64,000 bases of DNA from Gammaproteobacteria bacterium (GCA_015488555.1 WFNO01000122.1:12300-76299); one strand, 5' to 3'. Positions 13,495 through 60,420 are shown, numbered from the stretch's first letter. A program made the numbers and translations. The notes: generated by a model not told the origin, from the letters alone.

Positions 13495-13497
13495 TCC

Positions 13498-16464: not shown

Positions 16465-16486
16465 CAGGCCTGGCCCATCGCTGTTC

Positions 16487-17023: not shown

Positions 17024-17035
17024 GGACGTGCCGCC

Positions 17036-18049: not shown

Positions 18050-18054
18050 GCGGT

Positions 18055-21647: not shown

Positions 21648-21693
21648 GGAAAGGCCACCTCAGCAGGTATTCACGCGAAAACGGCAAAGCGGT

Positions 21694-22437
21694 TCAGCCG
21701 TCCAAATCTTCGTCACGGGCCTTTTTCCCCCGGCCGGAAGAGGAAGACGAAGAGGGCGGACGGTCTGCCTGCCTTGGATTGGGCCTGGGATTGGCCGTTG
21801 ACAGGGGTTTATCCACGAAACCGTGTTCCACGGCATAGCAGATGAGTTCAGCAAAGTTTTTCATGCCCATCTTCTCGAGAATGCGGTTGCGATGGGTGCT
21901 GATGGTCTTCTCGCTCAAGGACAGGCGCTTGCTGATCTCGGCGTTGCGCAGTCCGGAAGCCAACAAGCAAAAGATCTGAAATTCCCGGTCGCTGAGTCGC
22001 TCGTGCGGGGCCAGTTCCTCTTCCTCCTGGAAACTGCGCGCCAGTTTTTGAGCCACGGAGAGGGTGATATATTTCTCACCGCGCCCCACCTGTTGCAAGG
22101 CCTGCAGCAATTCTTCGGTCTTGCACCCCTTGGTAAGATAGCCTGCGGCGCCTGCCTTCAAGGCGCGCAGGGCATACTGGTCCTCGCTGTGCATGCTCAG
22201 CACCAGCACCGCCACCTCAGGCCAACGGCGCTTGATCTCCTGCAACACTTCCAGACCGTTCATGCCAGGCAAGGTGAGATCCAATAACACCACGTCCCAG
22301 TGGTTCCGTTCCAGACTGCGCAGGACTTCGGGACCGCTGGCGGCTTCACCCACAACCTCGAATGTGGAATAATCGGTGAGGATTTGGCGCAGACCGGTAC
22401 GCACGATGGCATGATCGTCTGCAATGAGAATATTCAT
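21694..22437 (-). CDS. NarL/FixJ (LuxR)-family response regulator
   Basis: Receiver domain (MNILIADDH...LDLTLPGMNG), LuxR HTH (EISKRLSLSEKTISTHRNRILEKM), and an unusual Pro/Ser-rich C-terminal tail. Confidence 0.88.
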   Translation of the reverse strand: MNILIADDHAIVRTGLRQILTDYSTFEVVGEAASGPEVLRSLERNHWDVVLLDLTLPGMNGLEVLQEIKRRWPEVAVLVLSMHSEDQYALRALKAGAAGYLTKGCKTEELLQALQQVGRGEKYITLSVAQKLARSFQEEEELAPHERLSDREFQIFCLLASGLRNAEISKRLSLSEKTISTHRNRILEKMGMKNFAELICYAVEHGFVDKPLSTANPRPNPRQADRPPSSSSSSGRGKKARDEDLDG

Positions 22438-23417: not shown

Positions 23418-24131
23418 CTAGTGCAGTGATTGAACAGGCAGTTCCCGCTGGTCGGCAGCCGGAGCATCACGTGAGGGACTGTTACGCTCTTCCCAACGCT
23501 GTCCCTGTTCCGCCAGCCATTGTGCCTCTTCCGGTGGCCGCGGACCACGTTGTAGGCGATCCTCCCATTCCCATAGCGCGGCTCGAGCCCGCCGCACGTA
23601 GGGATCCCCGGGTGGTGCCAGATGGATGTAGGTGCGCATGGCCCCCAAGGCAGCCGGCAGATCGCCCTGGGCCTCGAACACCTCTGCCAGCCCCCAATAG
23701 GCATTACCCTTGTAAGGATCCAACTCGATGGCGTTGCGAAAAAAGGCTTCCGCCTCCTGGTAGCGCTGCAGGCCAAGCAATGCAAAGCCCATGTTGACAT
23801 GCGCATCGGTGAGCCGGGGCGAGAGGGCCAACACGCGGTGCAATGCAGTGGCGGCATATTCATAACGACCCGCGTGCAACATCATTACTGCCTGCTGAAA
23901 ACGCAGACGAATCTCGGCCATGCGCGGATCTTGGATCTCGTCGGCATCCATACCGCCTTCCAGCCTGCTCTCGGCGTTGACCTCCTGCCAGAGACCTTCG
24001 GGCATACGGCTGGACCACAAGGGGCTGTAATCCAACTTCATAGCCCCCGCAAGCATGCCAGTAGCCACGAGCATGACGGTCACCATGACCAAAGACAGGG
24101 CCGCCACGGTACGCTCGGGTAGCGCACTCAT
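23418..24131 (-). CDS. membrane-anchored TPR-repeat protein
   Basis: N-terminal TM, then TPR-like helices (AIELDPYKGNAYWGLAEVFEAQGDLPAAL). Its ATG overlaps the ccsA-like stop (ATGA). Confidence 0.7.
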   Translation of the reverse strand: MSALPERTVAALSLVMVTVMLVATGMLAGAMKLDYSPLWSSRMPEGLWQEVNAESRLEGGMDADEIQDPRMAEIRLRFQQAVMMLHAGRYEYAATALHRVLALSPRLTDAHVNMGFALLGLQRYQEAEAFFRNAIELDPYKGNAYWGLAEVFEAQGDLPAALGAMRTYIHLAPPGDPYVRRARAALWEWEDRLQRGPRPPEEAQWLAEQGQRWEERNSPSRDAPAADQRELPVQSLH

Positions 24132-25000
24132 CAGATCACCCCCTTGTGGGCTGCCTCACTGTAGAAAGGCGTGCCGAAATAAGTCAAAAAAGCAAAGACG
24201 AAGATGCCGATAATGGCCAACGCTCCCACGTGTATTGGAATGCGATAGCTGAGGCGGGCATGCAAGGCCGCCCCCAGGAACAACCAGTTGAGAAAGGATG
24301 AGGTCTCCAGTGCATCCCAGGCCCAGTAGCGGCCCCAGGCGTCCTGAGCCCATACGGCACCCGCGATGAGCATCAAACTGTCGAAGATAAGCGCCAACAA
24401 CATGAAACGCCAAGCCATATGGTCCAGCACCTTGTCCGGTGGCAAGTGACGGAAGAAAGGCGCCACCCTGGGAATACGCCTCAAGAGAATGACACCGGCC
24501 AACCCCGAGCCTATCAGGCAAAAGGCCAGAAAGAATTTGCCGAACCCCACGTGCGCCCAAAGCCATTCGTTGTAGTAGGTAGGGGGATAGTGACTGTCCG
24601 AAGGCTCCAAGAGTAACACCCAGGTGCCCAGCACCCAGAGCATGGGCAACACCACCACCGCCGTAGGACGCAGCACCGGCAGACGCCAGTAGGCGACAGC
24701 ATATATCAATCCCAGGCTGAACAACTGACTGATAAGCAATTCGAAGAGGTTGACGAAGGGTCCATGACCGAGGCGTAACCAGCGCTCTGCCAGGGACGCA
24801 GTAAGCAAGATCACCCCACCGGTAAGTAGGGCCAGGACCAAGGACTCGTGGCTGCGGTTCACGGCTGCCCCAGCATCCCCCCCGCGGGTGCGAACGAGGC
24901 CGTAGAAAGCAGACAAGGTCGCCAGTGCATAGGCCACCAGTCCCGTATAGAGCCAGGGAAGTTCAGTAAAAACCGTTGCTTCGCTCATTTCGTTCATCAT
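24131..25000 (-). CDS. System II cytochrome c biogenesis protein CcsA/ResC-like (haem-handling W-rich membrane protein)
   Basis: WAQDAWGRYWAWDALE tryptophan-rich motif, flanking His residues, multi-TM. The ORF's N-terminal extension is rejected. ATG at 25000 overlaps the ResB-like stop. Confidence 0.85.
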   Translation of the reverse strand: MMNEMSEATVFTELPWLYTGLVAYALATLSAFYGLVRTRGGDAGAAVNRSHESLVLALLTGGVILLTASLAERWLRLGHGPFVNLFELLISQLFSLGLIYAVAYWRLPVLRPTAVVVLPMLWVLGTWVLLLEPSDSHYPPTYYNEWLWAHVGFGKFFLAFCLIGSGLAGVILLRRIPRVAPFFRHLPPDKVLDHMAWRFMLLALIFDSLMLIAGAVWAQDAWGRYWAWDALETSSFLNWLFLGAALHARLSYRIPIHVGALAIIGIFVFAFLTYFGTPFYSEAAHKGVI

Positions 25001-26034
25001 AGCTTGCCTCCGCCCCATGGTGCCGTTTCCAGTTCCGGTTCCGCGCCCTTGCGTGAGACTTCCCCGGCCTGGGGCCAGGGATGAGTGGCAAACTTGTTCC
25101 AGAAATAGGCCGCCAAACCCAGCACCCCAATGACGGCCGTGAGGAACAGCCACTGGAGAGTGGGGTCGTAGAACAGTTTGTACCCCATCCAACTGCTCAA
25201 GCCCTCGTAACGCAGCACGCCACCTGGTAGAGCCGTTGCCTGCCCCGGTAGCAATTCCTCTCGCTGTTCTCCACTGCGTAACACCAATATTCCGTGTGCC
25301 TTGCTTGGATCCAGGGTCCAAGCTTGATCCGCCTTGAGACCGGTCTCCAATTGCAACCAGAACTTGACCTCCTCCCCACCGGGAGGAGTCCACCGATTGG
25401 CCTGGCGAAAGTCGAACAGGGGATAGGAAGGCATGTGGATGGTGCCGGTCACCGGCTCTCCAGTTTCCGGGATCCAGGTAAGCACCGCAGCAAAACCTTT
25501 ATTGAATGTGGTATAAAAACGATAGCCCTCCAGTACTAGAGGTGTGTCGTCCCCCACCACGCGTCGTTCCCATCCACCCTGACCGTCAGGCACCAGCACG
25601 TGACTACGGGTGGGTCCGCGCATCATGCCTGGTCCATAATCCACCGTGAAAGGCCCCTGCACGAAGACCACCTTCTCCAACTCGCCACGATGCCAGGGGC
25701 CTTTGCGCACGTTCATGAGTTCGGCCGGATCGAAAGTACTGCCTTCCACCATCTCGATATGCGCCTCCATGTGGGTGAGGCGACCAATGGCAGCCAATAT
25801 CACAATTCCCAACAAGGAAAGATGAAAGATCAAGAGTCCAGGACGGCGGTTGATCCGGGCATTGCTCATCACCGCCGCCAGCAGATTGACGGCCAGCAAG
25901 GCCATGGGAGCCACCAACGCCCAGACGGGGGTATCCACGGGATTGTCGTAGCTGAGGGCGGCCCCCACGGCCAGCAGGGCCATGCCCAGCAAGGTGAAAC
26001 GGGTGGAGGAAAGGCGCCTCAACAAAGCGGTCAT
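24997..26034 (-). CDS. ResB/CcsB-like cytochrome c biogenesis protein (short form)
   Basis: ResB-like N-terminus (LRRLSSTRFTLLGMALLAVGAALS), TM His (LIFHLSLLGIVIL), a periplasmic domain and a C-terminal TM. Lies immediately upstream of the ccsA-like gene. Confidence 0.7.
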   Translation of the reverse strand: MTALLRRLSSTRFTLLGMALLAVGAALSYDNPVDTPVWALVAPMALLAVNLLAAVMSNARINRRPGLLIFHLSLLGIVILAAIGRLTHMEAHIEMVEGSTFDPAELMNVRKGPWHRGELEKVVFVQGPFTVDYGPGMMRGPTRSHVLVPDGQGGWERRVVGDDTPLVLEGYRFYTTFNKGFAAVLTWIPETGEPVTGTIHMPSYPLFDFRQANRWTPPGGEEVKFWLQLETGLKADQAWTLDPSKAHGILVLRSGEQREELLPGQATALPGGVLRYEGLSSWMGYKLFYDPTLQWLFLTAVIGVLGLAAYFWNKFATHPWPQAGEVSRKGAEPELETAPWGGGKL

Positions 26035-28715
26035 GGTGGATTCACACAGGCTTCGGAACTACCCAACATCCAGGTGGCACCATTGAAACCATTGCCGGGT
26101 GCCCCAGCCGAACCGCAATTGGCCTGGGTCCATTCCCCGCTGCGGGCGAACTTGCGCACCTTGAGCACAGCACCGTTGTAATACGGACCATTGTAATAAC
26201 GCGCAGTGGTGTGATTGCGCACTTGCCGGCTGCTGGCATCCCCTGCTCCGGCTGGTTCACCAGCGAGCAGCGGCGCTTCCAACCCCACGTCGTTGAGATT
26301 GGCCAGGAACACTTTGTTCTTCCACCCATGGGGAATGGCGATGTGACAGAAGGTACAGCTGAAATCAGTCACCCTGCCGGCATGCCCCACGTGCAGATTG
26401 ATGTTCCTAAAATCAAGGCAGCCGACATTCACTCCAATGTTGGTGCTGAACCCGCTACTCAGCACAGAGGCATCAGGAAACGAGGCATCACCACGGCCAT
26501 ATTGATCGTATTCGTGGCATTTGAAACAGAGATGATTGAACGGTCCCGGGGGACGCGCCTCACCAGTCTTGTCGTCCCAGTCGCCCTTGAGCAAGAAGTT
26601 GTGGTCAGAACCGTGTGGCCCCCAGGGGTAACCGTTCTCGTCATTGGGCACCACTGTCTCCGGCGCGGTGGATGAGCCGTGACAGTCGGTACAATACATG
26701 GTCTGAGTACCCACCGCGACATTGAAGGGCGAAAGCCAGTCATCGGCATTCGCCTTGCGCACCTGGGGCGTGCGCCCGGTGGGTTTGACCACTGGATGCC
26801 AGGAGCGGTGATTGTCCGTCACCCAGTTCACACAATTGCCGTCCTTGTCCCGATAGGCCGGTACCGTACCGCCCGTCTCCACCGTGGAATCCGGCTCATT
26901 GGGATCGATGAGCATGGTACATTCGCCCACGCTGCCAGCGAAAGCTCCCGTCGGCGTAACAGGCGTGCCTTCTCCCATGTGGTCGTCGGGCGACTGGAAT
27001 TCCATGGCCTGGTTGGTGTACTGGAAGAGGGCGTTGGTACCTGGCGGCGTACCACCCACAAAGGAACCCAGCATGGGCGGTTGATCATAGGTGTAGTTGG
27101 AATGGCACTTGAAACAGAGTTGGTACTCGCGGGTGAGATAGGGTGCGCTGACATCGGTGCTGCCGCCCGTACCGGGATCGCCGCGTTTCACCTCGAAAGT
27201 CACCGGCTCGCTGCCGAATTCGGTGGAACCGTAGACAGGCTCCACGCCCCAGATGCCCCGCAATACCCCGGAAGCCAGATTGGTATGCGGCACGCCATCT
27301 TCGTGCAGATGGGTACCGGCGGGATCGGGCACGGTACTGTCCGCGTTGAACAGGCGGTTACGCGTCACCCGATGGGGATTGTGGCAATCGGTGCACTCGA
27401 CATGGCGATTGTTGAGATTGCCCTTACCCAAGTTCTCCGGCGCCTCGATGAAATCCTGCCCCCGCCGGTCTCCTTGGGTTGCCGTGCTGCCCGTACCGAT
27501 GCTGTGCACCTCGGTACCTGCGGGCTGATCCGAGCTGGCGATTGGCATTCGCCGCGCCATGGTGGTGAAATCGGTCTTAATGTCCGGCACCTCGAAAGAG
27601 AAATTAGTACTGGGATTGACCTGCCCCTGCAGTGTGTTGCCGTCGGCGGAATGGCAGGCATAACATACTTCTTCCACCGCTGGATTGCCGCCCTGTTTAT
27701 AGCGGGCGCCGTCCGCCGTGGTGAACACGGGGCCATCGGTACCCTCTCTGAGTAAGCGCCTTGCTCCCTGAACTGTGTGGGGATCGTGGCAGTTGAGACA
27801 AGCAGCCTGCCAAACGCGCAGATCACGGGGAAATTCGCGGAGATCGGCAGCGGCATCCGTATAACGTTCGTCGGCCACGGCGGGATGGGCGTGCGCCGAC
27901 CCCACCCAGCCGTCTTTATCGTGACAGGCCAGACAAATGATGTCGTTGTCACGATCGAAACGCCCATCCACCGGCTCTTGTTTCTGGAAGCGGTTGACGC
28001 GCAGGAACTTGATGTTCTCTCCGGGCACATCGGAACGCAGGTGCGGATCATGACATGTGATACATTCCACCTTGCCATCCTCCAAAGGCAGATAATCTCC
28101 CTGCGGAGCGGCCGGCGGGCTGCCACGGGTGCGCTCGTTGATGTGGGCCACCACTGCCGGATCGAACAATTCTCCATCCCGAGCCGCCTGACTGCTGTCA
28201 TAGGTAAAAGAAATAGGATGGTCGTTGCTCAGATCCACTCCCAGGCGACGCGTAAAGCCAGTGGTTTCCCCCAACCCTTCGGGAATGGTGCCATCGGCCT
28301 TGGTGCCGGTGAAGGGAATGTTGGGATTCTCGATACGATTGAGCACGTTGACCGCGCCCAGGGCAATGGTGCCGTCATGACAGGACAGGCACAGTTTGGA
28401 TTTTCCGCCTGGCTGCCCCAGATCCGTGGCATCCAGCGATGTAGAACTGAAGGGAATATAGGTGGCGGAAGACAGCTGGCGGTTCCACAGGGGTGCCGCC
28501 TGTTCCGGTGTGGCACCGTGGGGAGTGTGGCAAAAGGCACAGATCTGGGATTCACTGCTGGCGTGGGCCTGGCGTTCAACCCCTTGAGGAACGACGGTGG
28601 CGGAGAAATTGTGCTTGGTATTGCTGATGTCGGAGATGATGTCCGCCCAGACCACCCCAGGCCACGGCAACAACATCCACACTAAGCCCACCGCCAACAC
28701 CCACGGACGCTTCAT
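26031..28715 (-). CDS. secreted undecahaem c-type cytochrome (~895 aa) with an N-terminal doubled-CXXCH module
   Basis: Eleven CxxCH motifs counted (CAFCH, CLSCH, CITCH, CLACH, CLNCH, CYACH, CTDCH, CFKCH, CTDCH, CFKCH, CTFCH). Signal peptide MKRPWVLAVGLVWMLLPWPGVVWA. The N-terminus NTKHNFS...CAFCHTPHG...PLWN...CLSCHDGT is paralogous to the start of 37730..38566. Confidence 0.88.
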   Translation of the reverse strand: MKRPWVLAVGLVWMLLPWPGVVWADIISDISNTKHNFSATVVPQGVERQAHASSESQICAFCHTPHGATPEQAAPLWNRQLSSATYIPFSSTSLDATDLGQPGGKSKLCLSCHDGTIALGAVNVLNRIENPNIPFTGTKADGTIPEGLGETTGFTRRLGVDLSNDHPISFTYDSSQAARDGELFDPAVVAHINERTRGSPPAAPQGDYLPLEDGKVECITCHDPHLRSDVPGENIKFLRVNRFQKQEPVDGRFDRDNDIICLACHDKDGWVGSAHAHPAVADERYTDAAADLREFPRDLRVWQAACLNCHDPHTVQGARRLLREGTDGPVFTTADGARYKQGGNPAVEEVCYACHSADGNTLQGQVNPSTNFSFEVPDIKTDFTTMARRMPIASSDQPAGTEVHSIGTGSTATQGDRRGQDFIEAPENLGKGNLNNRHVECTDCHNPHRVTRNRLFNADSTVPDPAGTHLHEDGVPHTNLASGVLRGIWGVEPVYGSTEFGSEPVTFEVKRGDPGTGGSTDVSAPYLTREYQLCFKCHSNYTYDQPPMLGSFVGGTPPGTNALFQYTNQAMEFQSPDDHMGEGTPVTPTGAFAGSVGECTMLIDPNEPDSTVETGGTVPAYRDKDGNCVNWVTDNHRSWHPVVKPTGRTPQVRKANADDWLSPFNVAVGTQTMYCTDCHGSSTAPETVVPNDENGYPWGPHGSDHNFLLKGDWDDKTGEARPPGPFNHLCFKCHEYDQYGRGDASFPDASVLSSGFSTNIGVNVGCLDFRNINLHVGHAGRVTDFSCTFCHIAIPHGWKNKVFLANLNDVGLEAPLLAGEPAGAGDASSRQVRNHTTARYYNGPYYNGAVLKVRKFARSGEWTQANCGSAGAPGNGFNGATWMLGSSEACVNPP

Positions 28716-29794
28716 GATTCCCCCCAGTCCCTCAAGTACTCGAATATCATCACGCGACCGTTGAAGGCATCGGCCACATAGACCCACCCGCGGTGGTCGG
28801 TCCACACACCCGCAGGCAGATAAAACTGCCCAATGCCATTACCCGTCCCGCCGATCGGCAGCAGGAACTCCCCTTTCTCATTGAATATTAACAGATGATC
28901 GTAATAGGATTCCACCACGTACAGATTGCGGTCCTGATCAACGGCCACGCCCTTGGGACGCGGCAGATCGCCAAGATAGAGCCCGCGGCGACCTACACTA
29001 CGCACGAAACGCCCCTCACGATCGAAGACTTGCACCCGGGAATTGAGAGTGTCTGTCACATAGAGTCTTCCGTCGGCGAAGGTCAAGTAAGTAGGAGCAT
29101 TGAATTCTCCCGGCCCATGTCCTCGCCGCCCCCAAGTAGCCACCAAAACACCGTCCCGGTCGAAGACCTTCACGTCGTGGGCCTTGCTGTCCGCCACGTA
29201 GATGAGTCCACTCACCGGATCGCGGGCCACGCCCACGGGACGCTGCAGAACGCCTTCCCCCATGCTGCCCTGGGGCTTGCCCTGCTCGTTCAAGATCACC
29301 ACGCGCCGCAGGTCCGCGTCTGCGACAAGTATGTATCCCGGCTCACCCGCCGTCACACCCAAAGGCGTGAGAAAATGCAAATTTGCTCCGGCCTCCTCCC
29401 AGATCTGCAGACCGTCTTTCGGATCGAAGACGTATACCGCTGCTCGGCTCACATCACTGACATAGATCCGCCCACGCGCATCGGTATACCCCCCCTGCGG
29501 GCGCTGCAGGACACGCGGGCTATGCGGTCCTGTAGCCAAGCCCACCAGCCAAGCCAATACCTTGCGACCGACAGCGGTCCGTTGGCCACGGTAATTTTCC
29601 TCGCCGGTCAATTGTCCCATGTAGCGATAGCGAGGGCGCTCAGGTGGCGGTGGCCACACCGGCGGGGCATCGTCCAGCTCATCAAATCGCAAAGCAGAAC
29701 TGGGGCCGCCGGCACACCCTCCGGCCAATATCAGGACCACCACCATGAAACCGGCAGCCACACCCCGCGTCAGAGAGGCAAGACGGCAAGACAT
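28712..29794 (-). CDS. NHL-repeat six-bladed beta-propeller lipoprotein
   Basis: Lipobox LAGGC. Repeated blades of the form G-F-x-x-P-x-G-V-A-V-D-x-x-x-x-L/I-Y-V-x-D, with an NHL/N(S)R-V-Q-V-F motif recognisable in at least one blade. ATG overlaps the upstream stop (ATGA). Confidence 0.8.
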   Translation of the reverse strand: MSCRLASLTRGVAAGFMVVVLILAGGCAGGPSSALRFDELDDAPPVWPPPPERPRYRYMGQLTGEENYRGQRTAVGRKVLAWLVGLATGPHSPRVLQRPQGGYTDARGRIYVSDVSRAAVYVFDPKDGLQIWEEAGANLHFLTPLGVTAGEPGYILVADADLRRVVILNEQGKPQGSMGEGVLQRPVGVARDPVSGLIYVADSKAHDVKVFDRDGVLVATWGRRGHGPGEFNAPTYLTFADGRLYVTDTLNSRVQVFDREGRFVRSVGRRGLYLGDLPRPKGVAVDQDRNLYVVESYYDHLLIFNEKGEFLLPIGGTGNGIGQFYLPAGVWTDHRGWVYVADAFNGRVMIFEYLRDWGES

Positions 29795-30807
29795 CACTGC
29801 ACGCGTGGCGTTTCCGCCCGTTCTAGATTTTGGCGTGTAGCCTCTAGAACCTGGATGCGACCATTCATGGCATCGGCCACGTAGAGCAGGCCACCTTCCA
29901 GCCAAAGATCGGCAACGCGCTTGAACTGTCCGGGCGCAGTTCCGGAACGTCCCACAGAAAAACGGTAATGAGTGCCCTCGAAGACCCGGATGGTGTCGGT
30001 GAGATAATCGCCGACATAGGCCCAGCCGCGGGCATCCACGACGATGGAAGTGGGAAAAATCACCGTATCCTTCTCGAAAGACGCGAGAGGACCGCCGTCA
30101 GGCGCTATCACCTGAACCCGGGATTCTCCATAACGTGTGGCCACATAATAGCCTTCCGGCCCTAGGGCGAAGGCAGTGACGCCACGAAAACGCCCCGGGC
30201 CTTCTCCGCGCTCTCCGATGGCACCGCTGAGCAACCCCGCCCGGTTGTAGACCAGCACGTCGTCGTTGAAACCATCTGCGATGTACAAGGTACTGGTGGC
30301 CTCGTCCACCACCACGGCCACCGGCCGCCCCAGGTTGATGCGGTCCTCATAGACACGAATCAGGCGGTCGTCGCGGTCGAAATACAAGACCCGGCCACCG
30401 TCGAAATCGGCTAGATAATAGGAAAGATCGGAAGCCACGTAGATATCGGACACCGTACCGCTTACCAAGCGGCGCAAATCCTGAAGGATACGCAATTCTC
30501 CGCGGTCCCGACGATAGAGCAACACCTGTTCCAGGCCTTCGTCCACGATGTACACCGCAGGCCCGCGAGCAGCTACGGCCACGGGGCGGACGAGCCGCAC
30601 ATATTCCAATCCCGTGAGCAGATTACCGCCTCGCATTCCACCATCGATCACTTCCCATACCACAGGCTGTGTGCCAAGGGCACTTCCCGCGGCATCTCCG
30701 GAAGCGGGCACGGAACCCGGCTTCATAGCGCCGCAGCCGGCGGCAAACAGGAAAGCCGCTACGGCGATCAGCGCAACAATCTCGTTTCGTTGGGAACAGA
30801 ATGACAT
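29794..30807 (-). CDS. NHL-repeat beta-propeller lipoprotein (paralog)
   Basis: Lipobox LFAAGC. Blades YIADGFNDDVLVYN and LYVADAMNGRIQVL. Start 30807 overlaps the upstream cytochrome by about 40 nt, so it is somewhat uncertain. Confidence 0.72.
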   Translation of the reverse strand: MSFCSQRNEIVALIAVAAFLFAAGCGAMKPGSVPASGDAAGSALGTQPVVWEVIDGGMRGGNLLTGLEYVRLVRPVAVAARGPAVYIVDEGLEQVLLYRRDRGELRILQDLRRLVSGTVSDIYVASDLSYYLADFDGGRVLYFDRDDRLIRVYEDRINLGRPVAVVVDEATSTLYIADGFNDDVLVYNRAGLLSGAIGERGEGPGRFRGVTAFALGPEGYYVATRYGESRVQVIAPDGGPLASFEKDTVIFPTSIVVDARGWAYVGDYLTDTIRVFEGTHYRFSVGRSGTAPGQFKRVADLWLEGGLLYVADAMNGRIQVLEATRQNLERAETPRVQ

Positions 30808-31415
30808 CGGCCGCAATTCATGGTGGGGGGAAAGGCCACGTTCCCGTGACAGACTCCGCAATACTCTCCCTGGATGATGGCAGACATGGAAACGGGATTG
30901 GCGCCCTTCTGGGGAATAAAGATGAGCGGATGGCAATTGGCACAGGTCAGCCACTCGGTGTGCTGGCGGTGCGGGAAACGCACGTGCGGCATGGAGGCGG
31001 TGTCCTTGAAAATGATATCGAAGTCCACTGGAAACATATCTCCCTCACCGTCCACGGACTTGCGGGGATCAATGAGCCCCATCTCCAGAGTCTTGACCCA
31101 GTCGATGATACCCTGGGAATCACGTGGAAAATTGGCCATGGCTTCGTAGGGTTGCTGCAACACCGCCACTGCCTCACTCGCAGGATCGTGAATGCCATCC
31201 TCAGCGATGGGCACGATGTCGCCTGTCAACTGAAAGTGCTTGCCGCGCGACCAGAACGGCTTAGCCACATCGGCCGGATTCTGCAAGAGCTGCGGGGTCT
31301 TGGCTGGCGTGGCGGCCATGGCTATCGGCCATACCGGAAGGAAAATGGCGAGACACACGGCCCACAAGAGCCTCAAACCGCCGCTCACTCGTTTTCCACT
31401 TTGGCACCCGTTCAT
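30768..31415 (-). CDS. periplasmic trihaem c-type cytochrome (family A)
   Basis: CANCH, CGVCH and CGRCH, signal peptide. Paralog of 33399..34064, sharing DGIHD...FPHRQHTEWL.C.NCHP.IFIPQKGAN...CGVCHG.VAFP. Confidence 0.8.
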   Translation of the reverse strand: MNGCQSGKRVSGGLRLLWAVCLAIFLPVWPIAMAATPAKTPQLLQNPADVAKPFWSRGKHFQLTGDIVPIAEDGIHDPASEAVAVLQQPYEAMANFPRDSQGIIDWVKTLEMGLIDPRKSVDGEGDMFPVDFDIIFKDTASMPHVRFPHRQHTEWLTCANCHPLIFIPQKGANPVSMSAIIQGEYCGVCHGNVAFPPTMNCGRCHSVPNETRLLR

Positions 31416-31548: not shown

Positions 31549-33279
31549 CTAGCGGACTCCCGCCAGACGCAAGGCTCGCTGAATGTGGGTCGTCGCCCCT
31601 TGCAGCATGAGTATGGCCGTCTTGTAATCCCCCTTCGCTGCGGTGGGCAAGGCCTGCGCCTTGATGCCTTTTGCCTTTTCCACGAAACGGTTCATCAACT
31701 CCACCGTCTGCGGTGAAGGACGCCGCTGTTCGATGGCCAGCGGAATCAGTTCCTCGTAACTCTCGTAACGCGCCAGCTCGTATTCGTACTCTTCCTTCGG
31801 CGTCTCAAAGACCAACTCATAAGACATAGTCTCCTCGTGGAGCATATCGGTCAAGGCATTGTTGAGGTCCTCCTGGGCCCGCGAGAGGACTTGCACGGCT
31901 TCGGCGTAATCACCCTCCTCGGCCAGGCGCCGGGCCTCGGTCTTGGCGGCCTCGATGCGTGCTACGTCCAATTGCGGAATCTCCTTGCGGTGGCGCTGCT
32001 TGCTCAGGCGCTGGTAATTGCGCTGGTAAGAGGCCTGAAAGGTCTCTACGCCTTGGAGTAATTCTTTGAAGCGCTCCTGCAAGGCAGCCTGATCACTCTC
32101 GGCAGGCACGCGCCGGGAGGCTTCGCTCATAAGACGCAGGGATTCGTCTACCAACGCCAGGGCCTGTTCGAAATGTTGCTCGTCGAAAGCCGCACGTGAG
32201 GCCTGCAGCTTGTCCCGGGCATCGCGTAGAAATCCTTGCGCCACGGTATTTCCGCTGCCCTCGATACGACGGGCAGCGCTGGATTGATTGACGAACAGCT
32301 CGGCAAAGGCCAGTTTCTGCTGCACCTGCCCTTTACTCACACGAGGACGGTCTTCAAGGGCCGGAGCGGCAGCGACAGCCGGGTGTGCAGGGGTCGCCGC
32401 CAGTTTCACCTTCACATGGTCCTCCTCTCCCTCATCGACGATGTGGATGACACCGCCCATGTTCTTGTGATTGCGACACTGGTAATACAATACGTCAGGC
32501 GCGGAAGCATCTGGCGTAAAGGTGACCACACCGTTGTAGGTGAAATTACCCTCCACCCCTTTGGAATAGGTAGCTGCCCCCCAGCCGGTCTCACTCCGAG
32601 AGAGATAGAAGTCGTGCTGGACGTTGGTGTTCACTTTGAACGTATAAGTCTTGCCGCGCACCAGGATCAGAGACTTTCCTTGCACACCATCGACGATAAA
32701 ACCATATTTGTCGCCCACCCCATAGTAGGGATGCGAGGGATCCTTCAACCCCAGCGTCACCTGAAACACAAAGGGATTGACGTCCTCCTTCTGCACCACG
32801 GGTGCTGGTTGCCGTCCAACAGGTGCCGATGCCACGTCGCGATCGGCAGCAAGGACGGATGGAGACTCCCCAGATATCGATTTTTCAGATGCTGATTCTT
32901 CCTGCTCCGCAGCCTCCGCGACAGCGGATTGTGCAGCGGCCACCTCAGGCTCGGTGGCCGCCGGCACACCCGAATCCGCCTCAGGAATCGCGCGCCCCTG
33001 TCCAAGAGGCTCGAACCGTGCAGATTCCGGGACTGGAGCAGCCTCGACCACCGGCTGGGATTCCAGAACCAACTCCCGCTCCGGCTCGGACTGTATTTGT
33101 TGCGATGCGGGAGCAGATATCGGTGCAGCCGCGGGCGCGACCGTCTCCGCAGGTGGCGCCTGGTCAACAGGCGCTGGCATCTCCTTGCGCGTAGCACAGG
33201 ACACCAGCGCCAGGCCAAGCACAAGAGCAAGTGCAGGCACGACCACGTGCAAGTCTTGGGCTGCACCCCGACTACGCAT
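31549..33279 (-). CDS. lipoprotein with Ala/Pro/Glu-rich linker, cupredoxin-like (amicyanin-type Cu site) domain and C-terminal alpha-helical domain
   Basis: Lipobox LALVSC. A disordered low-complexity region of about 150 aa. Candidate type-1 Cu ligands: H in NVQHDFY, and C, H, M in YYQCRNHKNMGGVIHIV (compare the amicyanin C-x-P-H-x-x-M motif). Coiled/helical C-terminal half. Start is 33279 or 33291. Confidence 0.6.
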   Translation of the reverse strand: MRSRGAAQDLHVVVPALALVLGLALVSCATRKEMPAPVDQAPPAETVAPAAAPISAPASQQIQSEPERELVLESQPVVEAAPVPESARFEPLGQGRAIPEADSGVPAATEPEVAAAQSAVAEAAEQEESASEKSISGESPSVLAADRDVASAPVGRQPAPVVQKEDVNPFVFQVTLGLKDPSHPYYGVGDKYGFIVDGVQGKSLILVRGKTYTFKVNTNVQHDFYLSRSETGWGAATYSKGVEGNFTYNGVVTFTPDASAPDVLYYQCRNHKNMGGVIHIVDEGEEDHVKVKLAATPAHPAVAAAPALEDRPRVSKGQVQQKLAFAELFVNQSSAARRIEGSGNTVAQGFLRDARDKLQASRAAFDEQHFEQALALVDESLRLMSEASRRVPAESDQAALQERFKELLQGVETFQASYQRNYQRLSKQRHRKEIPQLDVARIEAAKTEARRLAEEGDYAEAVQVLSRAQEDLNNALTDMLHEETMSYELVFETPKEEYEYELARYESYEELIPLAIEQRRPSPQTVELMNRFVEKAKGIKAQALPTAAKGDYKTAILMLQGATTHIQRALRLAGVR

Positions 33280-33398: not shown

Positions 33399-34064
33399 TT
33401 ATTTCCAAGGATTCTTCAACGTCGCCTCACTGAGTGGCGGTTGCCAATCCGCTGGCTTGGGCTTGGAGTGGCACTTCTTGCATGTCTTGGTTTCGATAGG
33501 GAAGGCCACCTTGCCATGACAAACACCACATTTCTGCCCCAGGAGAATGGCCGACATGTTGATCTGGTTGGCCCCCTTCTGGGGAATGAAGATAGCCGGA
33601 TGGCAATTGGAACAGAGCAGCCATTCCGTGTGCTGGCGATGCGGAAATACCACGTCGGGTACAGAAGCCTTGACCGGCCGTACGATGTCCAAATCCATCA
33701 CGAAAGGCTCGGCATTAGAATCGAGCAAGTCCCAGCGTGGCTTGATCAGCCCCTCATCCAGGGCCTTGACCCAATCTACGTGGTTGCCAAAACTAGTCCT
33801 GGGCAATCCCTCGTATGCCTCCAAAGGAGGCTGCAGATTGAAAGTGGCCTCGTTGGTGGTATCGTGGATACCGTCTTCCCACGGTGGCGCATTCGGGTTT
33901 TTGGGTTTCTTCAGATTGAGGTTGAAGGTGTTGGCCGCCGATACCTCTCCCATCATCAACAACCCCTGAATCGCGTTACCGGCTGCCGGTACCGAAGTAC
34001 TCCAAACGGCGGCGATCAGCAGCACAGCGCTGGAAACGATGACGAACCCGTTCTTCAAACTCAT
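33399..34064 (-). CDS. periplasmic trihaem c-type cytochrome (family A paralog)
   Basis: CSNCH, CGVCH and CKKCH. Signal peptide. GGGGAGAG RBS. Confidence 0.82.
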   Translation of the reverse strand: MSLKNGFVIVSSAVLLIAAVWSTSVPAAGNAIQGLLMMGEVSAANTFNLNLKKPKNPNAPPWEDGIHDTTNEATFNLQPPLEAYEGLPRTSFGNHVDWVKALDEGLIKPRWDLLDSNAEPFVMDLDIVRPVKASVPDVVFPHRQHTEWLLCSNCHPAIFIPQKGANQINMSAILLGQKCGVCHGKVAFPIETKTCKKCHSKPKPADWQPPLSEATLKNPWK

Positions 34065-34088: not shown

Positions 34089-34535
34089 TTATTTGTTGTC
34101 GGCGGTCTTCTTGGCAGGCAGGGGCTTGTAGGCCGGTGCTACCAGACGTTGTAGAGTGCTGCCATGGAAATGGGTAGGGGTACCCGGAATGCCCGAATGG
34201 CACATGGCACAGTTCTCCACCGACCAGGCCACCTCACCGTTGTGGCAGGCACCACAGAACTTGCCGTCGATGATCTTGGCCATGGTGATCTGATTGCCAC
34301 CAGCCTTGAATTTAAATCCGAGATCGGCATGACACACCTTACAGCGGAAACGGATGCGATGGAACCAATGAGGGAAAACCGCTGGGCGCATACCGGCGGC
34401 ATCGGAATAGTTGTTGATGACGACGTCTCCGTACTCGGCCTTCGAAGGTTGGGCCACCCCTGCGAACAATAAGACCGCGAAGGCTCCCAAAACGAACGGT
34501 TTCCATGCCCCCCTGTGCTTGATCTTCAGTGCCAT
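34089..34535 (-). CDS. small trihaem cytochrome c (cytochrome c3/c7-like)
   Basis: CKVCH, CGACH and CAMCH within 148 aa. FPHWFH...IDGKFCGACHNG pattern. GAGGAGAGG RBS at an internal ATG. Confidence 0.82.
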   Translation of the reverse strand: MALKIKHRGAWKPFVLGAFAVLLFAGVAQPSKAEYGDVVINNYSDAAGMRPAVFPHWFHRIRFRCKVCHADLGFKFKAGGNQITMAKIIDGKFCGACHNGEVAWSVENCAMCHSGIPGTPTHFHGSTLQRLVAPAYKPLPAKKTADNK

Positions 34536-34725: not shown

Positions 34726-36543
34726 TCAAAACAGGCGGTTCACCTGGAAATAGATCAGGCTGAAACTCTGGTCCTCTCCTCCTCCTCCGGTCAGATCGAA
34801 ATAGCGCCAGCTCATTCTCAACCGGGTCAAACCAATGGTGTAGTCCAGGCGGTTCTCCCATTCGAGACGATCCATGTTGCCCGACACGTCCGTGCGGGAG
34901 AGGCGCAGATCCGACAGGAAACGCAATCGCGGTACACCAAACACCGCACTGTGGGTGTAATTCAACTGCCCCGTTCCCGTTACTCTATCATTAACCCCCT
35001 GGCGGTTGAAGTCCTGGCTCACGTACTGGATGGTGAGATTACCTGTCAGATTGCTGAGCCGGTCGAGATAGCGGGTCCGCTGAATCTGGAAATTGACAAA
35101 CTGTTGATTGCCTTCCTGATCCCCGAAGGAACGGCCATCGGAGAGGGTCACTTGCAAAAAGCTGGTGGCCTCCGGGGAAGAAGCGTCCCAGGACAAACTG
35201 CCCGAATTGTCCAAGCGTTGCACCGAGGTCTCTACATCACCCATCTGTTCGTCACCGCTCACTGTCTGACTGAGGCTCAGGCGGATATTGGAACGCCGGC
35301 CGATCACCCACAGGCGCTGAATATCGTGCCCCAGTTTGAGCAGAAAGGATTGATCCTGGCGCTGTGGTGCGTCTCGCGCACTGGCCGTACCCTGGGTATA
35401 CCACTGATAGTTGAACCCAGACCAGAGAGGGCGAATGTCCGACTGATAGAGAGCGCCGGCGCGGCCCCTAGAAATGAAATCTGCACCGTCGCCGTTGTCA
35501 CTGCTGAGCACATCGACGTTGGCATCGAAACGCAGGTTGCGGGTGTACTGATAGAACATTCCACCAGTAGCGCTGAAATTGGTGAGTTCTACCTCGTTGC
35601 CCACCGTATCGGCCTGTAGCCCATAGAAGCGCACCCCTCCACTCAGGGTCAACGGCCGATCCAAGGGCCGCCAAAACACAAAGCTGGACAATTGCGTCAG
35701 ATCGGTGTCGCTGTCGGGTTGATTGGTACTATTGAGCGGCTGTTTCGATTCGTAATCGGAATTGTAGATGTTGAACATGGTATCCAGCCGCAAGGCACGG
35801 TTGGGAAAGTAGAAATGATCCACATTGAGAATGAAGGTATCGGTCTTCTGATCGATCACGGAGCGTTCGCTGCTCTGGATGCTGCTCTTGGCAATCAAGG
35901 TCTGCTTGGGCATTTTCAGATCCGCCTCCACACCGAACAGCTGGTCCCGGTAATTCTCTCCGCCCGGTTGCTGCTGCTCCCAATCGTTGCGGTCATAACG
36001 CAATTGGAAGCGGTGTCCCTTCTGAGTGTAGAAGGATTGCTTCAGCGATAGGCGACTGGTACGGAACTCGGTGCTGCCCAGGGTATTCAAGGGACTGGAG
36101 CGGGCCACCAGGTCCACCCGACTGTCGCTGGCCTGGTAGGTAAGCAGGAAAGGGGTGCGACTACGGGGCAGTATGCTCAGGTTGAGGTTACCCGTGAGGA
36201 TGGAAGACTCGTTGGAGCTACTTCCTTCGAACTCGGATTTGTCCCAAGTGAAGCGCAAACCGGTATCGGCAGTGGCCAGCCAGGGCCTGCCGAGATAACC
36301 TTTGAGATTGAGGCCCCCCTGTAACTGATTGCTGACGGTATCTTCCTGGCCGGTGTTGTCCAAGGCGCGAAAGGTATATCCGAGGTTGCCGGAAACATCG
36401 GTAAGGGCAAAGGCCCACGCGCACACGGACCAAGCCCACAGGCAGCAACCGCAAGCCAAGCGCAGCAACTCTACCCCCGCTTCCGAACCTCGAAATCGCT
36501 GACCATTGCCCCCGGCACAGACCCGCGGGCTGCTCCATCTCAT
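34726..36543 (-). CDS. large outer-membrane beta-barrel protein (~600 aa, MtrB/PioB-like size class), no haem motif
   Basis: Signal peptide ...AWAFA. Alternating amphipathic beta-strand pattern throughout. C-terminal ...YFQVNRLF with a terminal Phe, typical of OMPs. Confidence 0.7.
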   Translation of the reverse strand: MRWSSPRVCAGGNGQRFRGSEAGVELLRLACGCCLWAWSVCAWAFALTDVSGNLGYTFRALDNTGQEDTVSNQLQGGLNLKGYLGRPWLATADTGLRFTWDKSEFEGSSSNESSILTGNLNLSILPRSRTPFLLTYQASDSRVDLVARSSPLNTLGSTEFRTSRLSLKQSFYTQKGHRFQLRYDRNDWEQQQPGGENYRDQLFGVEADLKMPKQTLIAKSSIQSSERSVIDQKTDTFILNVDHFYFPNRALRLDTMFNIYNSDYESKQPLNSTNQPDSDTDLTQLSSFVFWRPLDRPLTLSGGVRFYGLQADTVGNEVELTNFSATGGMFYQYTRNLRFDANVDVLSSDNGDGADFISRGRAGALYQSDIRPLWSGFNYQWYTQGTASARDAPQRQDQSFLLKLGHDIQRLWVIGRRSNIRLSLSQTVSGDEQMGDVETSVQRLDNSGSLSWDASSPEATSFLQVTLSDGRSFGDQEGNQQFVNFQIQRTRYLDRLSNLTGNLTIQYVSQDFNRQGVNDRVTGTGQLNYTHSAVFGVPRLRFLSDLRLSRTDVSGNMDRLEWENRLDYTIGLTRLRMSWRYFDLTGGGGEDQSFSLIYFQVNRLF

Positions 36544-36558: not shown

Positions 36559-37623
36559 TTATTCGGCCCCGACTAGCAGAGCTTCATTGATCGTTATCGG
36601 TGTTTTCCTGCGCAATTCCTCCAGCAGGCTTTGCCAAGCCTGTGCCTTGCGCTCCTCACTCAGCATCAGGCGAGCCCTGGCCTCACTGCGTGCGAAATCG
36701 TTGAGTTGTGGTGGCGTGCGTGCCTCCAACCGAAACAAGGCATATCCCTGCAAGAGACGAATGGGGGCCGACACCTCTCCCGGAGCCAGCCCATCTACCA
36801 CCTCTTGAGCCTCGGTAGACAACATGCCGGCATGGACATAGCCCAGATCTCCTCCCCGAGCCGCCGACTCGTCAGAGGAATGCGCGCGTGCCAGCTCAGC
36901 GAACGAAGCCCCTTCCGCAAGTCGCGCCAATAGCTCCTCCGCCTTCTGCCGGGCCGCTTCCCATTCCTGCGGTGGCGCCCAAGGCGGTACACGCAACAGG
37001 ATCAACGACAGATGCAGGCGTTGGGGAGTGGTGAACCGTTCGGGATGGGCTTCGTAATAGGCACGCACGGCCGCCCGATCAGGCTCCGGCAAGTCTTCCA
37101 CCTCGTCTTTCAAACGCTGGATGCGACTTTGGGCTTCCAGTTCCTCCCGCAAAGCCTGCAGCAACTCTTCGCGCCGCTCCTCCCAGTGAGGCAAGCGGCG
37201 GTAACGCTCCTGTACCATTTCCAACTGCGCCTTCACCCAACCTCCGTCGGGTTCGATGCCCCGGCGTTGTGCCTCTTGCAGGAGCAGGCGTCGATCGACG
37301 AGGCGCTCGGCTACTTCGCGGCGAAAAGCCAGACGCTGGTCCTCCGGCACTTTGCCGTGATAGAAGCGCTGCCGATAGGCCGCATGCACATTGACCCGGA
37401 ATTCTTCGGCGCTGATGATCTCCTCCCCTACGGTGGCCAGAATCCCGTCGCCGTCAAGAGCGGCCTGGGGTGCGGCTCCCTCGGCGGGCACCACCCACAG
37501 CAAAGTGCCAAGCCAGCATCCGACCACCACCGACCACACCCATCGTCCGGTTCGGCCCCTCCAACGGTCCAGACGGCCCCAGGATACTCGGGCCGCCCAC
37601 GGGAGTTGCAGCCCCCCATTCAT
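36559..37623 (-). CDS. SurA/PpiD-like periplasmic chaperone with PpiC (parvulin) PPIase domain
   Basis: GGDLGYVHAGMLSTEAQEVVDGLAPGEVSAPIRLLQGYALFRLE parvulin core. Strong AGGAGG RBS at the internal ATG 37623. Confidence 0.8.
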   Translation of the reverse strand: MNGGLQLPWAARVSWGRLDRWRGRTGRWVWSVVVGCWLGTLLWVVPAEGAAPQAALDGDGILATVGEEIISAEEFRVNVHAAYRQRFYHGKVPEDQRLAFRREVAERLVDRRLLLQEAQRRGIEPDGGWVKAQLEMVQERYRRLPHWEERREELLQALREELEAQSRIQRLKDEVEDLPEPDRAAVRAYYEAHPERFTTPQRLHLSLILLRVPPWAPPQEWEAARQKAEELLARLAEGASFAELARAHSSDESAARGGDLGYVHAGMLSTEAQEVVDGLAPGEVSAPIRLLQGYALFRLEARTPPQLNDFARSEARARLMLSEERKAQAWQSLLEELRRKTPITINEALLVGAE

Positions 37624-37729: not shown

Positions 37730-38566
37730 TCACTTGTTGTGGCAGGTCAGGCACACTGCACTACCACTGGGATCGATGCGAAGGAAAGTGGGATTGTAGT
37801 CCACGTGTGGATCGTGACAGGAGGCACATTCCACGTAGGGCTGCGGCTCACCGGCAAAAGCCCCTTTGGTCCCCACCCGGGTATAAAGTTTCATGTCAGT
37901 ACGCTCGAAGTCTGAGGTACTACCTTCTACCTGGGTGTTGACCCACCATATCCGGCGTGTGCCGACAATCTTGGTCTCGGCTGGATTGAAATCCTTGTCG
38001 CGGCCCGGTCCCTGGGGATTGGATTCGGAATAGCCCCCGCCTGCATACTGCACGCTGATGGGATGGTCATCGGTAAGATCCTTGCCCAGATTGGTGATCA
38101 CCGTCACTGGCCCGATGCGGCCGTTCACTGCGGCGGCCTGGCCACTCCACACGCCGCTGGAAAAGGCATAATTGTCTGCGCCAGAACCCGGTTCGTTGAT
38201 CATGGCATCCATGGCTTGGGTGCCATCGTGACAGGAGAGACAAGCGATGGACACCGAACCGATAGGCTCGATCTGGGCATCCAGGGTGGTACTCCCGCCC
38301 TGGTCGTAGGTCTGGAATCCCGTAGGATCCAGGTAGCGGTTCCATAGCGGCACCGCCGCCGAGGCATCTCCTCCATGGGGGGTATGGCAGAATACACAGA
38401 TCTCAGTGGTACCGCTGAAATTACTGGCGGCATTGACGCCCATGCTGCCGAGATTGTGTTTGGTGTTGGCAATCCCCGCTCGCACCTCCTGAGCAACCCC
38501 TGACAGCATGAGTGCCAAGATGAAGGCCAAGGCCGTCATCCACGTTGGCCTGGCGGCTGGCCGCAT
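37730..38566 (-). CDS. tetrahaem c-type cytochrome with doubled-CXXCH module (paralog of the N-terminus of the 11-haem protein)
   Basis: CVFCHTPHG, CLSCHDG, CASCHDPH and CLTCHNK. NTKHNLG...PLWN motif. Signal peptide MRPAARPTWMTALAFILALMLSGVAQEVRA. Confidence 0.8.
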   Translation of the reverse strand: MRPAARPTWMTALAFILALMLSGVAQEVRAGIANTKHNLGSMGVNAASNFSGTTEICVFCHTPHGGDASAAVPLWNRYLDPTGFQTYDQGGSTTLDAQIEPIGSVSIACLSCHDGTQAMDAMINEPGSGADNYAFSSGVWSGQAAAVNGRIGPVTVITNLGKDLTDDHPISVQYAGGGYSESNPQGPGRDKDFNPAETKIVGTRRIWWVNTQVEGSTSDFERTDMKLYTRVGTKGAFAGEPQPYVECASCHDPHVDYNPTFLRIDPSGSAVCLTCHNK

Positions 38567-60418: not shown

Positions 60419-60420
60419 AA

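Follow-up and report, generated by a model that had tools for sequence, protein, structure and literature searches.

In OmcE nanowires, neighbouring subunits are joined by a histidine of one that ligates a haem of the next; OmcS subunits are likewise joined by cross-subunit histidine-haem ligation, and only the terminal haems of a wire are solvent-exposed (PMC9473688; PMC12954529). The authors of the OmcE-bundle structure asked what caps or tips OmcE wires, with no candidate in omcE operons; they predicted that a stopper would be OmcE-like with a ninth histidine, and that a tip might be OmcE-like with more exposed haems (bioRxiv 10.1101/2025.10.22.684050). The uetABCDEFGHIJ cluster (Eddie et al. 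2022, bioRxiv 10.1101/2022.05.06.490989 / mSphere 7:e00223-22) was defined in Ca. Tenderia electrophaga and Tenderiales, with UetJ as its undecahaem and UetA as its tetrahaem cytochrome (bioRxiv 10.1101/2022.05.06.490989), and later work extended the known uet genes to some Gallionella and to Leptothrix. An earlier description of the same family is that of OccP, encoded in the occA-S cluster of Ca. Dechloromonas occultata; this 922-aa extracellular undecahaem cytochrome was found at the protein level in enrichments that reduce Mn(III) (bioRxiv 10.1101/695007). Here we describe a uet cluster in a 64,000-nucleotide stretch of DNA from a Gammaproteobacteria bacterium (GCA_015488555.1 WFNO01000122.1:12300-76299; ‘the window’ in short), and in particular its undecahaem cytochrome gene, whose product starts with a unit of the OmcE type.

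The window cluster lies on the minus strand and encodes, in order, a tetrahaem cytochrome, a peptidyl-prolyl isomerase (PPIase), a barrel, two c7 cytochromes, a cupredoxin, a third c7 cytochrome, two NHL proteins, the undecahaem cytochrome, ResB, CcsA and a TPR protein, which is the published order uetABCDEFGHIJ-ccsAB-nrfG, gene for gene. The undecahaem protein shares 59% identity over residues 5-873 with those of two Ca. Tenderia sp. loci from metagenome-assembled genomes (MAGs; L008 and L010). Based on this gene order and identity, and on the similarity of the head to OmcE (see below), the gene is almost certainly an orthologue of UetJ/OccP with an OmcE-type head, and it is called uetJ in the following. 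Like the published UetJ, the window protein has 11 CXXCH motifs, a length within ~ 880-900 aa and a signal peptide, and its gene follows two NHL genes and precedes ccsBA-nrfG. Unlike in the published locus, genes for DsbA and a LuxR-type regulator lie between nrfG and bat, and a porin gene precedes uetA. With OccP, which was compared by way of its description and of a Dechloromonas locus (L061; same synteny, ~ 45% identity to the window UetJ) and not by its published sequence, it shares the form of a ~ 100-kDa undecahaem cytochrome, a gene neighbourhood that includes NHL repeat proteins, a PPIase and numerous c-type cytochromes, and a wide occurrence among Beta- and Gammaproteobacteria. The proposed roles differ: electron uptake for Uet, and terminal Mn(III) reduction, with electrons moving outward, for OccP (bioRxiv 10.1101/695007). 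An intact uetJ gene was called on two public contigs bearing an identical protein (among them contig JALUNY010000319.1, MAG GCA_027018575.1).

Translation gave a protein of 894 aa, in which the CXXCH motifs start at residues 59, 109, 218, 261, 306, 351, 441, 534, 675, 730 and 787; exactly five cysteines (599, 628, 766, 867 and 890) lie outside them, in agreement with the original prediction of an undecahaem protein of about 895 aa with at least five extra cysteines. No CX3-4CH or CXXCK variants were found in the translation, and no lipobox was read in its hydrophobic N-terminus. The motifs are separated by 45, 104, 38, 40, 40, 85, 88, 136, 50 and 52 aa and followed by a tail of 103 aa. Domain searches matched both this protein and the N-terminus of the small cytochrome UetA to Paired_CXXCH_1 and TIGR01905, as had been anticipated; for UetJ (Paired_CXXCH_1 E=1.3e-21 in five stretches; TIGR01905 E=2.3e-15) these matches are positive but generic. 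A local Pfam match of residues 215-316 to MtrC/MtrF domain II/IV reached 43 bits. Membership of the MtrC/OmcA/UndA group was rejected at 9.4 bits for TIGR03507 (curated cut-off 209), and membership of the MtrA/DmsE/PioA group at 42.5 bits for TIGR03508 (curated cut-off 192).

The closest relatives of known structure were found among OmcE nanowires. With phmmer against the sequences of solved structures, UetA matched 9YUQ (E=1.7e-25) and 7TFS (E=2.4e-23), and UetJ matched 7TFS (E=4.5e-18) and 9YUQ (E=3.7e-14); a profile of the UetJ family gave E=2.3e-28 for 7TFS and E=7.9e-22 for 9YUQ, always via residues ~ 13-226. These two entries, the OmcE nanowire of Geobacter sulfurreducens (GSU0618; 7TFS) and the OmcE bundle of D. 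soudanensis (9YUQ; Petersen et al. 2025), were the only significant relatives of either protein among solved-structure sequences. An AlphaFold2 model of UetA (mean predicted local distance difference test, pLDDT, 63) likewise had 7TFS as its sole significant PDB match in Foldseek (E=2.5e-7, probability 1.00), with template modelling (TM) scores of 0.53/0.68, of which 0.68 is target-normalised. In UetJ, the haem-ligating histidines of the head are His63, 113, 222 and 265 (proximal) and His35, 66, 166 and 225 (distal), each of them at least 97% conserved among 197 family members, including 77 distant representatives. The alignment pairs His35/66/166/225 of UetJ with the invariant His28/55/159/245 of UetA. 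Across 94 UetA-like and OmcE-like proteins, four CXXCH motifs, His28/55/159/245, P64, W66, N67, F252, L253, R254 and the C-terminal Lys are invariant. By sequence, then, UetA and residues 25-267 of UetJ both belong to the OmcE cytochrome-nanowire family, and UetA fits OmcE in sequence, histidine pattern, C-terminus and predicted fold.

The large and the small cytochrome had been proposed to share an N-terminal dihaem module of roughly 100 residues, duplicated within the cluster. Paralogy of the N-termini was confirmed by pairwise alignment (BLASTP E=4e-28, 31% identity). The shared part is longer than had been proposed: it runs from residue 6 to 278 in the small cytochrome and from 3 to 267 in the large one, or ~ 265 residues. 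As each of the four CXXCH motifs and each of the four distal histidines has its counterpart in the alignment, what the two have in common is an entire tetrahaem protein and not a dihaem module. Gene calls on public contigs place the start of the small gene at 38539, not at 38566. The relationship was further analysed with a neighbour-joining tree of 100 sequences (40 UetJ heads, 30 UetA-like and 30 Desulfuromonadia OmcE-like proteins), calculated without bootstraps and from a sample skewed to top hits. All three groups formed pure clades (40/40, 30/30 and 30/30) at a mean between-group identity of 32-34%, approximately equidistant from each other, and the midpoint root placed the UetJ heads on one side and the UetA-like and OmcE-like proteins on the other. 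Such pure and nearly equidistant clades argue against a recent duplication, and the comparison points to one ancient split and fusion behind the paralogy of UetA and UetJ.

The position at which the UetJ head ends was compared with the chain ends of 120 UetA-like and 120 OmcE-like stand-alone homologues. These have four CXXCH motifs each; the chain ends two residues past the fourth in all 240, and the last residue is Lys in 239. UetJ keeps this ending as CH-D-K, with K267 invariant in the family, and then runs on as ...GWVGSAHA..., in which His275 (‘SAHA’) is 99% conserved. As it runs 627 residues past CH-x-K, UetJ is not a plain OmcE-type subunit; as read from the alignments, an entire OmcE-type subunit is followed by 627 additional residues and seven haems, joined at the otherwise universal C-terminus of the family. 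The 104-aa spacer lies within the OmcE-type unit.

The extension has not been found as a protein of its own. Among 1.84 billion cluster representatives, 527 relatives were detected at E<=1e-3; all 83 of those with at least 700 aa carry an OmcE-type head and 72 of the 83 have 11 CXXCH motifs, and the shorter matches begin mid-protein and are thus fragments. As the extension never occurs without the head among the long relatives, it is not a mobile module found on its own. No relatives of it were detected among PDB sequences, either by phmmer with the extension or with the whole-protein family profile, which matched only OmcE via the head. The AlphaFold2 model of UetJ (mean pLDDT 63.4, predicted TM score (pTM) 0.69; extension mostly pLDDT 70-90) had no PDB neighbour in Foldseek, and the absence of a PDB fold neighbour also holds for OmcS, OmcE and OmcZ according to their authors (PMC9473688). 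A tandem repeat of the OmcE unit was considered and rejected, as BLAST and hhalign comparisons of head, middle and tail revealed no second OmcE-like tetrahaem unit; in the internal profile comparison, only the short paired-CXXCH unit recurred (best probability 91% over 50 columns).

A head that keeps every signature of the OmcE family might also allow UetJ to polymerise with itself, giving a ‘leaky’ wire with seven-haem side branches, comparable in effect to OmcZ. Such a polymer would let solitary UetJ-like genes (see below) work without UetA, and OmcE-like proteins with an extra solvent-exposed haem have already been proposed as a new wire family. The extension starts, however, at exactly the C-terminus that is free in 240/240 stand-alone homologues, which suggests that head-to-tail packing would be hindered. 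Both the published model and the present one indicate an elongated single chain, and no such filament is known. We regard self-polymerisation as very improbable.

Besides the paired cytochrome module, the original prediction had drawn attention to long haem-free stretches and extra cysteines, with room for non-haem domains. Both the stretches and the cysteines are present, and the stretches did not match any family in Pfam, NCBIfam or the PDB-sequence profile search beyond the OmcE unit. In the AlphaFold2 model, they consist of coil, short helices and small strand pairs at 490-510 and 597-630, which does not bear out separate domains. Outside the CXXCH motifs, the invariant residues in these stretches are His275, 313, 404, 438, 448, 469, 640, 701, 778 and 796 and Met673, and these likely serve as distal haem ligands. 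Together with the four of the head, this makes 14 histidines and one methionine as candidate distal ligands for 11 haems, a small surplus.

The cysteines outside the motifs differ in their conservation. Cys867 and Cys890 are both present in 193/197 UetJ-family sequences, and Cys599 and Cys628 occur together in 53 and are together absent in 138. This near-invariant pair and this co-occurring pair look like disulfides rather than a cofactor site. Residues ~ 600-630 (window ~ 26826-26918) form the most variable stretch of the family, with a mean identity of 0.18, which suggests that the loop with the optional Cys599/628 pair is exposed. Cys766 is lineage-specific; a role in His/Cys haem ligation or in a cofactor site was rejected, as it is found in only 30% of the distant members.

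These observations bear on the reading that a dihaem module was recently duplicated in the cluster and that the haem-free stretches and cysteines of UetJ form non-haem binding or catalytic domains. It draws on the four spacers of 85-136 aa and the 103-aa tail, on the two small beta regions of the model, on the three to four conserved histidines and methionine beyond the need of 11 haems, and on the lack of a relative of known structure for the extension. It is at odds with a shared unit that is four haems long and ancient, with inserts that match no domain family and hold the invariant histidines expected as distal haem ligands, and with cysteines that behave as two disulfide pairs and one dispensable residue; the insert at 600-630 is, moreover, too variable for a conserved active site. 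Additional non-haem domains are accordingly not supported, and we regard this reading as very improbable.

The neighbourhood of uetJ was compared with that of omcE. A minimal omcE cluster comprises two multihaem cytochromes, two beta-propeller lipoproteins, OmcE and a large barrel (bioRxiv 10.1101/2025.10.22.684050), and the omcE locus of G. sulfurreducens (L083) has the order ppcA (c7), resB, ccsA, 9-haem cytochrome, 8-haem cytochrome, NHL lipoprotein, omcE, a gene for an unannotated protein of 752 aa and glycosyltransferases. The 9- and 8-CXXCH cytochromes beside omcE (L083:6163-8282) include an octahaem protein that ends in ...CQMCHNK. UetI shares 33% identity over 320 residues with the NHL lipoprotein beside G. 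sulfurreducens omcE (E=2e-53), and UetH matches it at E=1e-12. The uet and Geobacter omcE clusters have in common resB/ccsA, c7 cytochromes and a large barrel gene near the OmcE-type gene. As annotated, the window cluster resembles the described omcE clusters in having a large barrel, propeller lipoproteins and further multihaem cytochromes. In two more distant uet-like clusters (L085 and L086), an extra NHL propeller gene directly precedes the UetA-like gene, in the same way as the propeller gene precedes Geobacter omcE.

The link between OmcE nanowires and Uet, as well as the fusion at the exact C-terminus, appear to be unreported in the literature searched. No paper making the Uet-OmcE link was found there, the Uet work being covered in its preprint version. 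In that preprint, UetJ is said to have ‘no other conserved functional domains’, and OmcE is nowhere mentioned (bioRxiv 10.1101/2022.05.06.490989). The OmcE-bundle preprint reports OmcE homologues in Pseudomonadota beside barrel and propeller genes and makes no mention of Uet, Tenderia or undecahaem cytochromes (bioRxiv 10.1101/2025.10.22.684050).

UetJ fits the predicted description of a wire end unusually well. It offers an OmcE-type head with all eight histidines, and it has an invariant ninth histidine just past the head, seven more haems and a place in the same operon as a plain subunit. We hypothesize that haems are attached in the periplasm by ResB/CcsA, and that UetA, on the outer side of the cell and at the UetC barrel, assembles into a wire like that of OmcE or into a short oligomer. 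UetJ would then dock by its OmcE-type head on one end of this wire through a cross-subunit histidine-haem bond, its extension taking the place of the next subunit and lengthening the haem chain by seven. In this arrangement, the end near the C-terminus of the head would be continued by UetJ’s own extension, and the other end would remain a normal OmcE-type face. UetJ could thus join the UetA wire or oligomer at one end only, and its free OmcE-type face would require either a partner or an N-terminal arm that folds back. It may connect the wire, close to the cell and through or at UetC, with the periplasmic c7 cytochromes, or form a distal tip in contact with an electrode or mineral. Electrons might flow inward, taken from a cathode or from the oxidation of Fe(II) as has been suggested for Tenderia, or outward, with Mn(III) being reduced as has been suggested for D. 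occultata. We see the case for the account as a whole, in which UetJ/OccP with its OmcE-type head serves as the end piece or adaptor of a UetA wire, as evenly balanced. The docking of UetJ on UetA is put forward somewhat more tentatively.

The distribution of UetJ was surveyed. A word-indexed protein search returned 120 full-length homologues of 54-100% identity, with 11 CXXCH motifs in 117 of them, and a one-genome-per-species scan found a UetJ relative in at least 568 genomes. These relatives span Gamma-, Beta- and Alphaproteobacteria, Magnetococcales, Nitrospirota, Nitrospinota and Myxococcota, and two of the carriers are cultured strains, Sphaerotilus mobilis DSM 10617 and Hydrogenophaga sp. 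RWCD_12. Of the fetched loci, 58 had at least 9 kb upstream and were taken as informative, the 10-kb flank cutting off several of those that lack partners. A separate UetA-like gene lies upstream of uetJ in 46/58 (~ 80%), in fixed order, and UetA, UetC and UetI are found together in 41/58. A UetJ-like gene without any uet partner was observed in five loci (L040, L043, L055, L060 and L027).

A few of the surveyed loci depart from the usual composition. L047 also holds a solitary UetJ-like gene, with no other cytochrome gene within 10 kb, and one Thiohalomonadales MAG carries three solitary UetJ-like copies on different contigs. L027 (4934-14846) has two tandem UetJ-like genes with 10 and 11 CXXCH motifs, each followed by a gene for a ~ 735-aa double 7-bladed Lactonase-type propeller; no UetA, barrel or c7 genes were found in this locus, which indicates a different partner set for a UetJ-like cytochrome. 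In L039, a second full-length copy (894 aa, 11 haems) lies upstream of uetJ in the same locus.

Several observations weigh against UetJ as the end unit of a UetA wire. In L040, L043, L055 and L060 there is no other cytochrome gene nearby and no uetA within 10 kb, and these solitary genes retain every signature residue; their existence shows that UetA is not an obligatory neighbour. Transcripts of Ca. Tenderia electrophaga reached 9.57 log counts per million (logCPM) for uetA (789 nt) and 10.06 for uetJ (2646 nt). This corresponds to ~ 2.4:1 per kb, without the large excess expected of the subunit of a long wire, and is easier to reconcile with a short complex of fixed composition than with a long wire and few caps. 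The head residues have pLDDT values below 50 in the UetJ model, which makes this part of the model unreliable. As the Geobacter octahaem cytochrome ends in CH-N-K, a CH-x-K C-terminus is not exclusive to wire subunits. UetC showed no significant similarity to the 752-aa Geobacter barrel, even with a hidden Markov model of 45 UetC orthologues. To our knowledge, no UetA filament has been observed.

The solitary genes and the nearly equal levels of uetA and uetJ transcripts in Tenderia would be in keeping with a UetJ that works as a haem wire on its own, as a monomer placed in or on the UetC barrel in the manner of MtrA/MtrC in MtrB. Such a monomer would conduct electrons through the outer membrane unaided, and its likeness to UetA would reflect only the common ancestry of the first four haems. 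The Uet preprint predicts an elongated bar, with gaps of less than 1 nm between its haems, in a porin-cytochrome arrangement (bioRxiv 10.1101/2022.05.06.490989). Eleven haems are also close to the length of the outer-membrane-spanning decahaem MtrA (general knowledge; PMC9473688), and 14 conserved histidines with Met673 more than suffice for 11 haems in one chain. A monomer accounts less well for the head, however: OmcE-type units leave one histidine pointing outward and one haem open, and UetJ has kept all eight histidines at 97% or more. It is also difficult to reconcile with the company of uetA in ~ 80% of the informative loci, in fixed order, and UetJ falls far below the cut-offs of MtrA/DmsE (42.5 vs 192 bits) and MtrC/OmcA (9.4 vs 209 bits). 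A monomeric, bar-shaped wire working with the UetC barrel is a strong rival to the wire-end proposal, and a real possibility, although we hold it to be short of probable.

The features of the uet cluster and of UetJ are listed in Table 1. The stop codon of uetI overlaps the start of uetJ, and the stop of uetJ overlaps the start of the resB-like gene, both as ATGA. UetC, conserved in 45 loci, was described as a 28-strand barrel, and UetF was called a cupredoxin, in the Uet preprint (bioRxiv 10.1101/2022.05.06.490989). In Pfam, UetF had only a weak At5g54830-like match and none that was confident; its N-terminal part is long and rich in Ala, Pro and Glu, its short central region contains an amicyanin-like copper loop (YYQCRNHKNMGG), and its long C-terminal part looks helical. 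Because their signal peptides end in lipobox-like sequences, UetH and UetI are probably lipoproteins, like the propeller beside Geobacter omcE; UetH was predicted to be cytoplasmic in the Uet preprint (bioRxiv 10.1101/2022.05.06.490989). Downstream of nrfG, a gene for DsbA is followed by one for a LuxR-type response regulator (21694-22437, minus strand), before the bat genes.

Table 1. Features of the uet cluster and of UetJ in the window, in order of transcription (positions in nucleotides of the window).
Feature	Position	Strand	Remarks
porin gene, first in transcription order	38949-40103	-	precedes uetA
uetA, OmcE-type tetrahaem cytochrome	37730..38539	-	269 aa, exactly 8 His, ends ...CLTCHNK
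uetB, SurA/PpiC-type peptidyl-prolyl isomerase	36559..37623	-	Rotamase E=1.5e-18, SurA_N_3; start as in the gene calls on public contigs
uetC, putative outer-membrane beta-barrel	34726..36543	-	605 aa, no Pfam match, C-terminal ...NRLF
uetD, c7-type trihaem cytochrome	34089..34535	-	Cytochrome_C7 E=1.5e-15, 3 CXXCH
uetE, c7-type trihaem cytochrome	33399..34064	-	Cytochrome_C7 E=2.1e-11
uetF, large cupredoxin-like protein, loop YYQCRNHKNMGG	31549..33279	-	576 aa; C-x2-H-x2-M copper-type loop read from sequence
uetG, c7-type trihaem cytochrome	30768..31319	-	Cytochrome_C7 E=5e-12
uetH, NHL beta-propeller, lipobox ...FAAGC	29794..30807	-	NHL/DUF5128; lipobox read from sequence
uetI, NHL beta-propeller, lipobox ...LAGGC	28712..29794	-	DUF5128 E=9e-25, NHL E=5e-21
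uetJ/occP, undecahaem c-type cytochrome	26031..28715	-	894 aa + stop
Sec signal peptide of UetJ	28644..28715	-	residues 1-24, ...VVWA/D (slash, cleavage site inferred by reading the sequence)
OmcE-type tetrahaem unit of UetJ	27915..28643	-	residues 25-267, haems 1-4, ends CH-D-K
C-terminal extension of UetJ	26034..27914	-	residues 268-894, haems 5-11, 627 aa
resB/ccsB-like System II cytochrome c synthesis protein	24997..26034	-	ResB E=7e-13
ccsA-like System II haem lyase subunit	24131..25000	-	Cytochrom_C_asm E=5e-24; Geobacter CcsA E=1.4e-17
nrfG-like TPR protein	23418..24131	-	TPR families; position conserved in cluster

Further genes of the window were noted outside the cluster. A System I maturation set lies at 6926-14130 on the minus strand (CcmH/CycH-like, 6926-8215; CcmF, 9346-11379; CcmC-like, 12009-12935; ABC ATPase, 13498-14130), ~ 10 kb from the ResB/CcsA pair of the uet cluster, so that both haem-attachment systems are close together in the genome. 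An alternative complex III-like block was found at 58193-63958, also on the minus strand, with genes for ActD (59891-60418), an NrfD/ActC-like protein (60421-61872), a c-type cytochrome (59334-59891), a 4Fe-4S protein (61938-62813) and a molybdopterin-binding domain protein (62810-63958). Alternative complex III genes cluster in expression with undecahaem and trihaem genes in Tenderia. The region 16000-21650 has a G+C content of 0.72-0.73, compared with 0.59-0.61 around it, and long spurious open reading frames on both strands; it carries BatD- and VWA/TPR-type (BatA/B-like) genes on the plus strand, convergent with the uet cluster. At the start of the window, the minus strand encodes a HAMP-PAS-GGDEF-EAL protein (336-2897) and two Reg_prop propeller proteins (3134-5807).

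The gene described here is one more orthologue of a named cytochrome in a named cluster; the object itself is not new, and the cluster is very widespread. The value of the analysis is in linking the Uet/Occ clusters for electron uptake, from Proteobacteria active on iron, cathodes and manganese, to the OmcE clusters of Geobacter relatives. The broadest form of the proposal, that UetJ/OccP are the missing end-pieces of OmcE-type nanowires and that such wires serve electron uptake in lithotrophic, oxygen-respiring Proteobacteria, is possible but in our view doubtful. In this broadest form, OmcE-type wires for electron uptake would be expected in at least 568 species-level genomes. Should UetA be the subunit of a wire and UetJ the fused unit at its end, direct tests would become possible of the way in which OmcE-type wires begin, terminate and are attached to the cell, of a role of cytochrome wires in electron uptake, and of the source of conductivity in Tenderia biocathodes.

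Compared with known systems, the proposed wire unit is closest to OmcE. OmcE, UetA and residues 25-267 of UetJ share four CXXCH motifs, four distal histidines and the motifs NTKH, CHTPH, PLWNR, DHP and FLR; UetA is also like OmcE in predicted fold and in its CH-x-K C-terminus. UetA is known here from sequence and model, whereas the filaments of OmcE, to which it is likened, have been solved. UetJ shares ~ 30% identity with OmcE and differs from it by the 627 residues and seven haems beyond the OmcE C-terminus. At the level of the cluster, no glycosylation gene block follows uet, unlike omcE, and the uet hosts are aerobic or microaerobic lithotrophs, not metal reducers.

The pairing of a multihaem cytochrome with an outer-membrane barrel for electron transfer across the envelope is shared with MtrC/OmcA/UndA and MtrA/DmsE/PioA, but UetJ differs from MtrC/OmcA/UndA in having no lipobox, few strands and no beta-barrel domains in its model. 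A further parallel, following the analogy of Petersen et al. 2025, is with the tip and terminator subunits of chaperone-usher pili. These pili assemble by donor-strand exchange and have an unrelated fold, whereas UetJ would, in its hypothetical role, use histidine-haem ligation. Both assemblies would be built on an outer-membrane barrel, and both would include a subunit variant that is encoded in the same cluster and joins the polymer on one side only.

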